Source: Octopus vulgaris (Eukaryota). Taken from it: DNA of 64,000 nt. Under the pieces are notes generated by a model. It saw nothing but the letters and a program-made list of their open reading frames with translations. It ran no database searches and was not told the origin of the DNA. The DNA is taken from NCBI GenBank assembly GCA_951406725.2, contig OX597817.1, positions 44,764,001 through 44,828,000 of the forward strand. Direction: 5' to 3'. Numbering within the stretch: the first letter of the stretch is position 1; each line of letters begins with the position of its first letter. The translations under genes were made by a program, and so were the position numbers. Below are positions 5,006 to 63,600 of this stretch, piece after piece.

Positions 5006-5270
5006 GTACATTGATAGAAATGGTAAGACAACAAAAGAATGGAAGAGAACTTGATATTAGGTAAATAGAGGAATTTATCTGTAAATATAATATGAAACAA
5101 TTATTCGGTAACCATGATAAAACTCCGAGTTTCGGATGTCGGGGCGGGAACTCACGCCGCCATCTCTTCAGTTATCCAGCCATCAGAGAGGGCAGCGTGG
5201 TTTCCGTCCGACATCCTAAACTCGGAGTTTTATCATGGCTACAGAATAATTGTCACATATTATATTTACA
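5006..5270. mobile_element. fold-back (inverted-repeat) PLE-terminus-like element carrying a hammerhead motif, between two (TA)n tracts
   Basis: Arms ~5080-5167 and ~5185-5270 are imperfect reverse complements (CCATGATAAAACTCCGAGTTT / AAACTCGGAGTTTTATCATGG). Confidence 0.7.
5116..5176 (-). ncRNA. type I hammerhead ribozyme, canonical C3:G8 core
   Basis: Minus strand: GAUAA-CUGAAGA-GAUG...CAUC-C-GAAA-CUC(G)GAG-UU-UUAUC. Helix I is 5 bp, helix III is near-palindromic, cleavage triplet GUU. Confidence 0.7.
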
Positions 5271-5310
5271 TATATATATATATATATATATATATATATA
5301 TATATATATA

Positions 5311-6930
5311 TCCTTAAATCCTTAAAAATGTTTTAGCCCGAAGGCCGCGGCCATGCTGGGGCACCACCGCTGAATGAGCTACACTAGTTTGTGAATCTAC
5401 CTCTGATACGTGGCACTTGATCAACAAGGGAGTTCGATGCTGCTGCCCGCATCCGTGTCTCCTGTCGTGAGGTAGGTTCATCTGGGACTCCCAACAAGAA
5501 GAGATCCAGTTTAGTTTTAAAGAAACCCACATCCACACCATGTAAGTCTCTCAGGCATTTAGGGAGGATGTTAAAGAGCTGTGGTCCTCTGAAACCCAAG
5601 CTGTTGCAGTATCTGGACCTGTATTTTGATGGTGATGTTGGAATCCTTGGCACCATGCAGCGGCGCCCCGTTCTGCGGTTGGAGTAACTTTGAATGCCAA
5701 AGTTTGGGACAAGACCCTCCAGGATTTTCCAGATGTATATCACTGCATATCTTCTTCCGCCTCCGCTCCAGGGAGAAGAGGTTTAATACCTTCAGTCTTT
5801 CCCAGTAGCTGACATTTTGCATTGAGACGATTTTCTTTGTGTAGCTTCTCTGAGTTGCTTCGAGTTCTGCTGTTTGTTTTATATTGTGTGGTGACCAAAG
5901 TTGGGAGCAGTAGTCCAAGCGGCTGAGGACAAATGTTTTCCATAGGACCATCAGTGTCTCCTTCTCTCTTGTTCTGAAAGTTCGGAGAATCCATCCAGCT
6001 AGCCGTCTGCATTTTATCACCAGATTAGCAATATGCATTTGGAAAGATGCATCATTGCTCATGTCAATGCCCAGGTCACGCACTGATTTTGACTCAGGGA
6101 TTGCAATTCTTCCTGGGCCAGTGTATCCAGTCTTCACGTCATTTACCTTTGTGTGCCAGTAGCGCAGGGCCTGGAACTTACCTGCATTAAACTGCATGTT
6201 GTTGTCCTCAGCCCACCTGTATATTGTGTCCAGCTCATGTTGCAGATGCGCAATATTTTCAGGGTTTTGTATTGCGTGGGAGACTTTTGTGTCATCTGCA
6301 TAGCTAGCAAGGGTGGTCATCGTAGCAACTGAAGGCATGTCTGAAAGGGCCACTATGAACATCAGTGGCCCCAAGACAGTGCCCTGTGGGACACCGCTTG
6401 TTATTTGCGTTTCCCTGGAGGTGGCTCCATTGCTCACAACTGCCTGTTTTCTGTCTTTTAGGAAGTTGTGCAGCCACTCTCCAAGTTTCCCGCCTATGCC
6501 GAGACCACGCAGTTTGTGACAGATCATACCATGGTCGACTTTATCAAAGGCTTTTGCAAAGTCAAGATATATTACATCCACATTTGAGCCATTTAGTAGC
6601 TGTTTCAACACCCAGTCATAGTGTTGCAGGAGCTGTGTTAGGCAGCCTCTACCTGGTCGAAATCCATGCTAGGTGTCAGACAGTAAGTCATTTTCTTCAA
6701 GGAACATGATTAGTTTCTTACGGACTATTCGTTCCATGACTTTGCTGATGTGTGAGGTCAGAGAGATAGGCCTATAATTTTTAGCATCTGCTCTGCTACC
6801 TCCCTTATGGATAGGGCATATTACCCCCTCTTTCAGTTTGACTGGGAGCTTACCACTTGCAAGAAAGCTCTGAAAAAGAAGCTGTAGCGGTTTTGCAAGG
6901 GCTCGTTTGCACGATTTGAGAAGGATCGCT
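5311..6930 (-). mobile_element. 5'-truncated CR1/L2-group LINE (RT domain), defective
   Basis: ORF 5571-6611 has DVIYLDFAKAFDKVDH, SGVPQGTVLGP, YADDTK and VRDLGI. Upstream YRPISLTSHISKVMERI. In-frame TAG near 6670, frameshift near 5745, 3' tail (TTTAAGGA)2; (TA)n on both flanks. Confidence 0.92.
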
Positions 6931-7787
6931 GTATATATATATACAGTTCTCTATCTCTTGAAGGAAGACATGGAAATGAACAATTTTGAGTCATGAGCTT
7001 AGTTTGAATAACTAAGGAATTCTTCCTTTAAGTTAGTCTTACATTAAAAAGCGAGTAATTATTATAAGTCTTTTAATAGTAATTTCAACATATCTTACTT
7101 TAATTGCGGAGTTTTGAGCAGCTCTTTTCACTTCACCTAAGGCAAAACTTAAGTCATCTAAAACAAATATTAAACGAACGTGTTGGTATAATTATAGAAA
7201 TTCAGTAATTTTCTGTTCAATGGAAACTGCCTGGCTATTTCTTGGTACGAAGTGACAATGTGGAGTTAAGCGCTTGGTAGTAATGGTTTTCCTGAATTAG
7301 TTTGATTAAAATGGTTTTAAAACGAGCATTCATTAGTCAACTGAAACAGGAAATTTGCTCTCGGACATTCAAAATGATATTGGAAATGAAGTTAAAAGAG
7401 TAACAGAGCCTTTAATATAAACTGACCTGTCATTTATTTTGCACTTTCTTCCCAGCGTGTAACAGTAGAGGGAGTTATTCATCTTTGCTTAACAGGAAAC
7501 AATTTAATACTAATGAAGTAATAAAAGCGGCGAGTAACAGGATAGTTAGTATGCTGGGCAAGATGATATAGTGGTATTCCGTCCGGCGTTATGTTCTGAG
7601 TTCGAATTTAACCGACTTCGATTTACTTTCGTTCTTTTTTTGCGTCCATAAAATAAACTCCAGTTGAGCACTGGAGTTGATGTAATTGGCTTAATCATAC
7701 TCGCAAAGTGGTTGCGTTGGGCTGGAATTTGAAATCAATATGAATGAATCTGTAGAACGATTGACGACCAAATATTTTCAGTATTTA

Positions 7788-8310
7788 TTGGGTTGTCCGG
7801 AAAGTTCGTGCCGATTTTTAAAGGAAAGGAAAAGGTCAATATAAATACTTGCCATTACATTTTTAATCAACCTAATATGAACCATTTTGTTGCACAATGC
7901 GTCTTCATTTTTCCTTTAACTTGAAAATACCCTCTTCCCAGAACTGAGGTAGTTTCATGAAAGAATTCATGAAGGTATCTTTTTACGTCATCCAAGGAAT
8001 TGAAATTTTTACCATTAAGACTATTCTGCAGAGACTTGAATAAGTGGAAAACCGAAGGAACACCATCTGGTAAATATGGAGGGTTGGGTAAGACATCCCA
8101 GCCGAACTGCAGCAATTTTTGTCTGGTTTAAAAAGCATCAGGTGCCGAAAATGAACTTTAGGAATATAAATCTTCTTCCACGATAAGATAGCTTAACCTG
8201 TGCTCTAAATGGAGATGTAGTCAAATCCTATTTTATGGAATCAACCATGTTCTAAAATAAGTCGAAAGGTAAACTACTATAAATCGGCACGAACTTTCCG
8301 GACAACCCAA
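7788..8310 (-). mobile_element. internally deleted mariner element
   Basis: Perfect ~30-bp TIRs TTGGGTTGTCCGGAAAGTTCGTGCCGATTT with TA on both sides. Transposase remnant WDVLPNPPYLPDGVPSVFHLFKSLQNSL is a degenerate YSPDLAPSDYHLF motif. Confidence 0.92.
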
Positions 8311-62181: not shown

Positions 62182-62394
62182 TTGGGTTTTCCGGAAAGTT
62201 CGTGCCGATATATAGTAGCTTACCTTTTGACTTATTTTAGAACATAGTTGAGTCCATAAAATAGGATTTGACTACACCTCTATTTAGAGCACAGTTTAAG
62301 CTTTCTTTTCGCGGAAGAAGGTTTATGTTCCTATAACTTGTGTTAATTCTGTAACCCTTCAAATTAGAAGATAAGAAAGTTCATTTTCGGCACT
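62182..62394 (+). mobile_element. 5' end of the mariner family seen at 7788-8310
   Basis: TA-TTGGGTTTTCCGGAAAGTTCGTGCCGAT TIR and 5' UTR match the reverse complement of 8140-8310; remnant EDKKVHFRH. Confidence 0.85.
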
Positions 62395-62820
62395 AGAAGG
62401 ATAGAGCATCACATGTTTGCCTATGAAAAATAACAAGTCAGTCACAGCTGTTCAGCGTGAATTCAGATGCCATTTCAACATTTACCGAAATCAGGCTGTT
62501 CCCGTCCGCAACATAGTCTTACGTTGGGTGAATTCACTTCGTGCACGAGGTACACTAATGAACAGGAGCTCGGTGAGGGCGCCACGAACGGTACGGACTG
62601 GGGAAAATGTGGAATGCGTCAGCCAAGCTTTGATGCAAAGTCTGAATCGTAGTGCTTAGAGGCATTCCACTGAACTTAGCATCGGTAATCGATCTGTAAG
62701 GCGTATTTTGCATGAAAACCTGAATTTCCACACGTGGAACAGTTGAAACCATGGCACTATGCACCGGTTTAATTTCGCTCGTCAGATGGAAGCAATTTTT
62801 AAGTAAATGACAACCTAATT
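62395..62820 (+). mobile_element. Tc1/mariner-superfamily transposase N-terminal HTH fragment (DUF4817-like)
   Basis: SVTAVQREFRCHF...RNIVLRWV..LRARGTL...PRTVRTGENVECV...S*RHSTELSIGNRSVRRILHENLNFH. Confidence 0.75.
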
Positions 62821-62834
62821 TTGAAGACAGTAAT

Positions 62835-63600
62835 GGAAATTATTTACATTTTTTACATTTGACGGATATTTGTCCCCATCTTGTTTGTTGTTAACACAAC
62901 GTTTTTTTTTTTACATTTGACGGATATTTGTCCCCATCTTGTTTGTTGTTAACACAACGTTTCGGCTGATATACCCTCCAGCCTTCATCAGGTGTCTTGG
63001 GGAAATTTCGAACCTGAGTTCTCATTCCTAAGGTATTTTACGATGTTATTATTACTATTGTTGTTGTTGTTGGTTTTGTTGTTACTGTTGTTGTTGTTGT
63101 TGCTGTTGTTAGTAACCCGCGCTCTTAACCACTACACCATATACCTGTGGGCAATTACGGAATGAATTTTAGGGTTTATAACTCTAATATTTTCCTATCC
63201 TTCCTTAATACCAGTTCCCATATGCTACTCATATATGCACTCGGTCTGCTTAGGAGGCTATTATGTCCTAACATATACGTTGCTTCATTTAGTTATCGTA
63301 TTTTCCTGTGGTGTTCTCTATCTATTATTTTAACTTTATCCCACAGGGGAAGGTGGTCTCCATTTTTCCATACATGATTAGCTATACCCGATTTATCAAT
63401 GTCTCCTCGGATCACAGCTTTGCGATGTTCGTCTACCCTTATTTGGGTGGGGGGACATATTTCACCTTTGTATAACCTACCACAACTGCATGGGACGGAT
63501 TACACAAAGTTTTTGGTCGTATTCTCTTCTACTCTCGAAAGAGATATTTGCGAAGTGTTGTATTATTTTTGAATACTGTCCTGATGTCATATGGGCCGCA
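62835..63600 (-). mobile_element. Penelope/Poseidon-type PLE 3' portion (GIY-YIG endonuclease plus terminal repeat)
   Basis: Manual translation TKNFV*SVPCSCGRLYKGE...IRVDEHRKAV...SGIANHVW..GDHLPLWDKVKIIDREHHRKIR*LNEA. An opposite-strand fragment KNMTQNCVYSIP lies at ~63635-63680. Confidence 0.85.
62951..62996 (-). ncRNA. minimal type I hammerhead ribozyme, C3:G8, loop-less helix III
   Basis: GACAC-CUGAUGA-A-GGCUG-GAGGGUAUAU-CAGCC-GAAAC-GUU-GUGUU; palindromic AACGUU. Confidence 0.8.

Follow-up and report, generated by a model that had tools for sequence, protein, structure and literature searches.

Watson-Crick variants of the catalytic 3:8 pair in hammerhead motifs of Octopus vulgaris retroelement families

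Hammerheads are reported to keep some activity with any Watson-Crick pair at positions 3 and 8, and Przybilski and Hammann reportedly found in 2007 that an engineered swapped 3:8 pair partly restores cleavage. Whether natural hammerheads have made use of this latitude is the question raised by 64,000 nucleotides of Octopus vulgaris DNA (contig OX597817.1, positions 44,764,001 to 44,828,000; here referred to as the window), for which the original prediction listed dispersed minimal hammerheads with all four Watson-Crick versions of the pair. The motifs resemble the minimal hammerheads described from metazoan Penelope-like elements (PLEs), which have a type I layout with palindromic helix III, lie behind an ORF for reverse transcriptase (RT) and GIY-YIG endonuclease and are scattered in thousands of copies, single or inverted (Cervera and De la Pena 2014, PMC4209133). 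The in vivo role of these hammerheads is openly questioned, and covariation at 3:8 bears on that question. Minimal hammerheads may parasitise PLEs (PMC8557442), and in vitro insertion of an anole PLE did not depend on hammerhead cleavage, and RNA-seq gave no reads with an end at the site (PMC11167929).

Natural U3:A8 cores and G3:C8 mutant rescue are already published. Natural ribozymes with a compensatory U3-A8 change of this tertiary pair were described by Perreault et al. 2011 (PMC3088659), and a U3-A8 variant has ~1,300 matches in Schistosoma mansoni (PMC4209133); the cores compared here from Figure S3 of the latter paper are C3:G8 except for two with U3:A8 and one with U3:G8, and none of those compared has G3:C8 or A3:U8. 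The C3G/G8C swap partly rescues cleavage of a PLE hammerhead (PMC11167929), and engineered C3G/G8C rescue mutants appear also in PMC8495972. The short-stem-III PLE hammerhead variants of Lünse, Weinberg and Breaker 2017, as summarised in a review (PMC6765202), are likewise small and cleave as dimers. Our literature search brought up no animal families with natural G3:C8 or A3:U8 cores, nor did a search on hammerheads of the presumed host group; Lünse 2017, outside its reach, may show 3:8 covariation beyond U3-A8.

Hammerhead motifs of the window

All nine listed motifs were found at the predicted positions with the predicted letters, and positions 3 and 8 are Watson-Crick paired in 9/9. A tenth, damaged G3:C8 motif lies at 48575-48624 (minus strand). 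The nine represent seven repeat families: a single inverted repeat (99% identity) has 9067-9107 in one arm and 9143-9185 in the other, and those at 22060 and 48644 belong to one family. Residues U4, G5, A6, A9, G12, A13 and A14, the A15.1-U16.1 pair and H17 at the three-way junction are present, and alignments of homologous copies show U4, G5, A6, A9 and GAAA conserved. A palindromic helix III that would allow dimers, predicted for all motifs, occurs in six of the seven families, the exception being the 5116 motif with its one-base interruption.

A strict scan with a type I hammerhead descriptor, in which positions 3 and 8 were unconstrained as in every scan, gave seven matches in the window, 7/7 with Watson-Crick letters at 3:8, while local dinucleotide shuffles (n=40) gave a mean of 0.05 matches, none Watson-Crick. 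A relaxed descriptor, with one defect allowed, recovered eight of the nine motifs by adding 45194 and matched nothing else; the 5116-5176 motif was recovered by neither. The window repeat search was swamped by microsatellites.

Three copies in the window are imperfect (5116 in helix III, 45194 in helix I and 28740 in helix II). The motifs are truncated, lone or inverted, none with a near same-strand partner, and minimum-energy dimer folds gave a full hammerhead dimer only for 9143 and 45194, the other motifs taking alternative pairings. The prediction's proposal that the nine copies are functional is not supported, and most motifs within the window probably persist as inert remnants.

Hammerhead-like hairpins could in principle arise by chance in an AT-rich, repeat-rich genome, a reading to which the three imperfect copies lend something, as does an Rfam scan of the window (E<=10) that returned no hammerhead; that scan missed the C3:G8 motifs too and so does not discriminate. 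The shuffle controls, the zero matches to reversed versions of all five family patterns and the fixed position of motifs behind PLE endonuclease genes make chance an extremely improbable source. These controls refute it for the families, while for some single-copy matches it may still hold. The Rfam mir-399 match at 9071-9180 is the inverted repeat.

Elements that carry the motifs

That the motifs are hammerheads of retroelement repeats is borne out; the further claim that all are minimal PLE motifs holds for 24786 and 45194, which lie behind PLE ORFs, but not for 9067/9143, which belong to a tandem retrozyme with extended helix I. The latter two lie where copies of a non-coding 362-nt tandem repeat of retrozyme type meet head to head (8835-9314, cut off by an assembly gap at 9315-9414), with one U3:A8 hammerhead in each arm: 9067-9107 on the minus strand (position 3 at 9102, 8 at 9097, predicted cut after 9072) and 9143-9185 on the plus strand (3 at 9149, 8 at 9154, predicted cut after 9179), where helix I continues beyond an internal loop. 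The repeat has a 362-nt period, forms head-to-tail arrays of up to four among the matches listed and is non-coding, the longest stop-free frame of the monomer being 55 codons. As far as its sequence goes, the family has the layout of a non-LTR retrozyme, with head-to-tail monomers of ~170-400 nt that each carry a type I hammerhead, and it shares with animal non-LTR retrozymes (Cervera and De la Pena 2020, PMC7229834; Li et al. bioRxiv 2026) the non-coding head-to-tail repeat, a 6-bp helix I, a 4-bp helix II, the extended helix I with internal loop and a self-paired predicted circle. It differs in its U3:A8 core, no core variant being mentioned in the passages compared here. The minimum-energy fold of a natural tandem pair is a double hammerhead, the predicted 362-nt circle is strongly self-paired (z -7.8 vs 60 shuffles), and helix II appears to covary, A-U vs G-C.

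The A3:U8 hammerhead at 24786-24824 (minus strand; helix II 1-2 bp; 3 at 24818, 8 at 24813, predicted cut after 24792) lies ~216 nt downstream of the endonuclease match of the broken PLE ORF that owns it (25041-26734, minus strand), which comprises reverse transcriptase, a Cys-rich linker and a GIY-YIG-like endonuclease. A Cys-rich CX2-5CxxC linker stands between RT and endonuclease in the window ORF and in intact relatives, and linkers of this type are common to Neptune-type and Nematis-clade elements (PMC8557442). The U3:A8 hammerhead at 45194-45232 (plus strand; 3 at 45201) belongs to a 3' remnant of a PLE ORF (44277-45054, plus strand) with 88-90% identity to a family of young, intact elements of 811 codons, relative to which the motif is one helix I base short. 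These young elements (2-18 differences in 2,436 nt) have U3:A8 in both 363-nt flanking repeats, and the motif stands in the flanking repeat downstream of the ORF encoding RT plus GIY-YIG at 24786, at 45194 and in a G3:C8 subfamily (loci L121/L130). In the A3:U8 family the closing pair of helix I likewise appears to covary, A-U vs G-C. An endonuclease tree of 28 rows left the order of the U3:A8 and A3:U8 lineages unresolved, with 11 of 25 inner branches open.

The G3:C8 motifs of the window lie in a short non-coding element of ~200 nt whose 5' end is fixed and whose 3' end is one of two alternatives. One copy (21922-22120, minus strand) contains the hammerhead at 22060-22110 (minus strand; 3 at 22103, 8 at 22098, predicted cut after 22067); the other (~48635-48831) contains that at 48644-48693 (plus strand; 3 at 48651, 8 at 48656) and adjoins an inverted partial copy (48493-48634, minus strand) with the damaged tenth motif. 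This element resembles PLEs in having inverted partners, two kinds of 3' end and flanks of (TA)n. An autonomous parent of the window's G3:C8 element and of the 28740 family was searched for and not found, and tblastn with two intact element proteins gave no linked ORF for either. A 1.3-kb carrier, made of G3:C8 copies that extend downstream and have shared upstream sequence and a terminal hairpin, was rejected as parent of the G3:C8 element, being non-coding with no RT match. The loose genome-wide G3:C8 pattern, for which control matches were about as many as real ones, served only for locating copies. C17 is absent in both G3:C8 lineages, for which avoidance of 3-17 pairing was considered, two lineages being too few to judge.

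Three families carry C3:G8. The 5116-5176 motif (minus strand; 3 at 5171, 8 at 5166) has a helix III with one unpaired central base, no true palindrome, and relatives share this shape and the C3:G8 pair; the dispersed repeat in which it sits is short and has a truncated partner in inverted orientation at ~5185-5277 (plus strand). The 28740-28782 motif (minus strand; 3 at 28776, 8 at 28771) carries one additional base on either side of helix II, and this copy also has a helix II change that is absent from all 14 relatives. The 62951-62996 motif (minus strand; 3 at 62991, 8 at 62986) is the canonical C3:G8 minimal hammerhead of a very abundant repeat.

Pairing at 3:8 across the genome

In an unselected 600 kb the strict descriptor gave 15 matches vs 1.0 expected, and 12/15 were Watson-Crick at 3:8; with the relaxed descriptor on the window plus the 600 kb, 24/30 were Watson-Crick vs 1.2 of 3.4 in shuffles. 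Family patterns with 3 and 8 free, counted by hand on the first 100 matches listed, gave U3:A8 in 100/100 for the retrozyme (1,280 matches genome-wide), A3:U8 in 95/100 for one family (113 matches genome-wide) and 97 of 100 for a second, and G3:C8 in 86/100 (1,294 matches genome-wide). Mismatched copies within families look like post-insertion decay. A candidate U3:G8 wobble family was rejected, the match being a decayed copy of a C3:G8 family (17/18 matches C3:G8).

Watson-Crick pairing was the majority state in 15/15 multi-copy lineages. For 7/15 the starting point was a window motif whose pairing was known beforehand, and copies within a family are not independent. A few source elements that happened to be paired could thus have amplified and then been favoured by a descriptor-guided search, a reading with which the 6/16 non-Watson-Crick single-copy matches also agree. 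Positions 3 and 8 were nevertheless free throughout, paired copies predominate too in the eight lineages that had other starting points than window motifs (one was reached from a mismatched match), and chance matches in shuffles of the same sequence (4.5) are about as many as the mismatched singletons. Such founder effects and ascertainment seem quite improbable as the main cause. The complementarity at 3:8 pointed out in the original prediction is far above chance and prevails in each multi-copy lineage covered, and complementary combinations outnumber the others.

A switch of the pair within one PLE family also speaks against founder effects. By hand count of the first 100 matches listed, this family has 81 A:U, 12 G:C and 7 mismatched copies. 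In a tree built with 3 and 8 masked, the four G:C rows group with one C:C row as a clade (93/87) nested among the A:U copies. This clade differs from its A:U sisters at 4 of 444 columns, and the double change at 3 and 8 occupies two of these only four diagnostic columns. The strict four-row G:C group, first defined by its 3/8 letters, appeared as a single clade in no more than 7% of the bootstrap trees, since the C:C row falls inside it. The aligned copies thus indicate that the G3:C8 subfamily arose from A3:U8 sisters by compensatory switch, a single event with moderate tree support (93/87, not starred).

Relative to the pyrimidine-purine U3-A8 swap described in PMC3088659, the purine-pyrimidine pairs G3:C8 and A3:U8 are also fixed here. 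In contrast to the cores described in PMC4209133, both are family majorities, the A3:U8 families having a helix II of only 1-2 bp, and in contrast to the engineered C3G/G8C mutants these are natural high-copy families, including the switch traced within one of them.

Probable self-cleavage and the 3:8 pair

Since the 3:8 pair is part of the active fold, its compensatory replacement, both between and within families, is evidence at the sequence level of selection on the catalytic shape in source elements. The motifs probably represent dispersed type I hammerhead copies from seven retroelement families, each fixed for one Watson-Crick 3:8 pair, which selection for self-cleavage in transposing source elements would have kept, and they likely copy small self-cutting RNAs of several such families. 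The helix II of just 1-2 bp in A3:U8 motifs is a caveat to selection for cleavage. Two same-strand motifs of a tandem transcript would exchange helix I strands while their palindromes join to form helix III; the 3:8 pair would place the 2'-OH of residue 8, so that the pair would matter more than its letters; and cleavage after H17, probably slow and with help from an element protein, would trim or circularise the element RNA.

Alternatively, selection could act on the pair as a signal near the start of reverse transcription, either structural or bound by protein, the G3:C8 and A3:U8 versions cutting little or not in vivo. PLE hammerheads cleave poorly in vitro, uncleaved RNA is the main template in the anole element (PMC11167929), and the G3:C8 short copies retain the whole uncut motif plus ~10-16 nt upstream, so that their templates were uncleaved or religated. 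The 3:8 pair is, however, described as belonging to the fold that is catalytically active (PMC3884650), and the rest of the catalytic core is also kept, as is a non-G at 17, although 0/136 matches can be G17 by descriptor and this residue is not independent evidence. We regard a signal of this kind as unlikely, and favour selection for self-cleavage.

Tentatively, G3:C8 and A3:U8 could then be natural active cores undescribed in animals, with lineages switching repeatedly among the four Watson-Crick states, which would make the 3:8 pair an evolvable means of setting the rate of a dimer ribozyme assisted by protein; more than half of the genome's hammerheads might be invisible to CUGANGA searches, and other genomes or element clades scored hammerhead-free might hide the same variants. 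The natural G3:C8 and A3:U8 sister motifs, near-identical otherwise, offer a test set for core identity vs rate. The large uncatalogued pool of the original prediction stands in that a CUGANGA search misses many motifs, but its U3:A8 part dates back in the literature to 2011 and 2014. Descriptors should require 3:8 complementarity rather than CUGANGA; in the unselected 600 kb, U3:A8 made up 8/15 strict matches.

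Hammerhead motifs in the window

A type I hammerhead descriptor written with positions 3 and 8 unconstrained (strict version) gave 7 matches in the window, Watson-Crick at 3:8 in 7/7, versus 0.05 per local dinucleotide shuffle (n = 40 shuffles), in agreement with the outcome expected of such a scan in the original prediction. The nine motifs it listed, beginning at 5116, 9067, 9143, 22060, 24786, 28740, 45194, 48644 and 62951, were all verified in coordinates and in the letters at positions 3 and 8. When one defect was tolerated (relaxed version), 8/9 were recovered and no others; the motif missed, 5116, has an unpaired central base in helix III, and the palindromic helix III claimed for the set holds except there. 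An Rfam search of the window reported no hammerhead, missing the C3:G8 motifs as well. Seven families account for the nine motifs: 9067 and 9143 are two arms of a single inverted repeat, and 22060 and 48644 are copies of the same element. None of the window copies has a same-strand partner close by, and they are probably inert. In the mutually unrelated 5116, 9143 and 22110 families, a 5' boundary or inversion point lies 8-11 nt ahead of helix I and is perhaps the transcript start. A broken non-LTR (LINE-type) reverse transcriptase at 5384-6668 on the minus strand (Pfam RVT_1, E 1e-20) is unrelated to the 5116 hammerhead.

The motifs had all been assigned to minimal hammerheads of Penelope-like elements (PLEs), an assignment that does not extend to the 9067/9143 family, which has a tandem non-coding layout like that of non-LTR retrozymes (PMC7229834). 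Its 1,280 genome-wide pattern matches are in many cases head-to-tail with a period of ~362 nt. The monomer is non-coding; as a circle it is predicted to be strongly self-paired (z -7.8 versus 60 shuffles). The minimum-energy fold of a natural tandem pair is a double hammerhead in which the palindromes pair and both cores stay open. A 100-N assembly gap (9315-9414) directly follows the retrozyme junction and may hide a tandem array.

Complementarity at positions 3 and 8

Across a sample of sixty 10-kb stretches spaced evenly along the 2.8-Gb genome (600 kb), the strict descriptor returned 15 matches where 1.0 was expected (8 U:A, 4 C:G, 2 U:G, 1 C:A), one U:G match being traced to a decayed copy from a C3:G8 family. 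Scaled genome-wide, with background and clustering ignored, this corresponds to roughly 39,000-115,000 motifs. For window and sample together, 24/30 relaxed matches were Watson-Crick, versus 1.2 of 3.4 in shuffles. The commonest mismatched state in descriptor matches was U3:G8 (loci L040, L091, L106, L111, L129, L170), those checked being decayed C3:G8; L106 or L129 may hold a wobble intermediate.

Genome-wide family patterns, with flanks fixed and 3 and 8 free, were tallied by hand over the first 100 matches listed. U:A was found in 100/100 for the retrozyme family, A:U in 95 for the window A3:U8 family (113 matches in total) and in 97 for a second A3:U8 family (672 in total), and G:C in 86 for the G3:C8 element (1,294 in total), the other 14 comprising 13 single changes and one double change to U:G. 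Reversed-pattern controls gave 0 matches for each family pattern. Fifteen lineages had at least two copies (6 C:G, 4 U:A, 3 A:U, 2 G:C; 7/15 seeded from window motifs), none with an unpaired majority at 3:8. Of 16 single-copy matches, 6 were unpaired, with 4.5 chance matches expected. The predicted excess of complementary over non-complementary copies was borne out as the majority state in every multi-copy lineage counted.

A switch from A:U to G:C and its mechanistic setting

The strongest result is an apparent compensatory switch, read from sequence, within a sister of the window A3:U8 family. This sister gave 133 pattern matches, and the 100 listed comprise 81 A:U, 12 G:C, 4 A:C and 1 each of G:U, C:C and U:C. 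In a tree built with 3 and 8 masked (36/58 extracted copies were long enough for inclusion), the C:C copy grouped with four of the G:C copies in a single clade (93/87) nested among A:U copies. Only 4 differences in 444 columns separate the clade from eight sisters, and positions 3 and 8 are two of them. The naive chance that this named pair falls among the four is 6e-5, which overstates the case because the event is single, was found post hoc and has moderate tree support; allowing for about twenty subfamily branches, we estimate that the chance would still be no more than roughly 1 in 100. A broader endonuclease tree resolved no order between U:A and A:U lineages.

Natural U3-A8 hammerheads were already reported (PMC3088659; PMC4209133), and the Figure S3 rows examined in PMC4209133 contain no G3:C8 or A3:U8. 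Our literature search, conducted without the most extensive survey of such variants (Lünse 2017), found no natural example of either. Clades were scored hammerhead-free in PMC8557442 using CUGANGA strings and also relaxed cores. The feature is real, combining known retroelement hammerheads, a compensatory switch traced within one family and two core states for which no description from animals was found.

The active fold includes a C3-G8 pair (PMC3884650), and the 2'-OH of residue 8 serves catalysis (PMC6155905). A G8C mutant is nearly dead and partly rescued by C3G (PMC8495972), as is G8C in a PLE hammerhead that cuts only with its own protein present (PMC11167929). Since the 2'-OH matters and C3G partly rescues G8C, any Watson-Crick 3:8 pair can hold residue 8, and tolerance of other pairs is expected from mutagenesis. 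Przybilski and Hammann in 2007 reportedly found some activity retained with all four Watson-Crick pairs. Tandem source transcripts would cleave slowly, as dimers and probably with protein assistance, and selection on them would keep the 3:8 pair. Against such a role for cleavage, insertion by the anole PLE is independent of cleavage in vitro (PMC11167929), PLE motifs cut poorly (PMC4209133), and minimum-energy dimers fully matched the hammerhead dimer in only 2/8 window motifs tried.

Host elements

The owners of the 24786 and 45194 motifs are PLEs. A broken ORF encoding RT, a Cys-rich linker and a GIY-YIG-like domain precedes the window A3:U8 motif (24786-24824, minus strand) by ~216 nt; intact relatives score above the Pfam cut-off for RVT_1 and below it for GIY-YIG, and the linker alone would make these elements Neptune-type. 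The 45194 U3:A8 motif follows an ORF remnant 88-90% identical to a young 811-codon family, whose ORFs show 2-18 differences in 2,436 nt and whose elements carry a U3:A8 motif in both 363-nt direct repeats. At L133 and L134 (whole loci), near-identical 811-codon elements occur as head-to-head pairs in which both members carry a U3:A8 motif of their own. Another young family, also intact (L131:4700-4745, L132, L147, L148), has a 753-codon ORF, an upstream 367-codon ORF and, ~650 nt behind the former, a U3:A8 motif whose GAAA strand contains one additional A. Both young families also have long open frames ahead of their RT ORF (L135:253-1740 and L131:286-1389), which lack a Pfam match. An A3:U8 subfamily (L194, L205, L208, L211, L215) carries, just upstream of the motif, a short duplication that covers the 5' strand of helix I and the first strand of the core.

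The G3:C8 element (22060, 48644) is ~200 nt long. Most copies begin ~10 nt ahead of helix I and end at ~+132 or +187 to +190; an inverted partner and flanking (TA)n tracts are common. In contigs of four sequencing runs (four different organism codes) the ends are identical, and no variant reaching 5% is listed at position 3 or 8. A search for an autonomous parent found none. Because of the inverted partners, two ends and (TA)n flanks, together with the two internal RT start sites of the anole element (PMC11167929), we infer by analogy that a PLE may have mobilised it. It also sits inside an older ~1.3 kb non-coding repeat (L180, L181, L185, L187, L189-L191), and the hammerhead apparently multiplied with this repeat as a passenger. 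This carrier terminates in a GC-rich hairpin, then CTAG, then T, which we take to recall a Helitron-type end.
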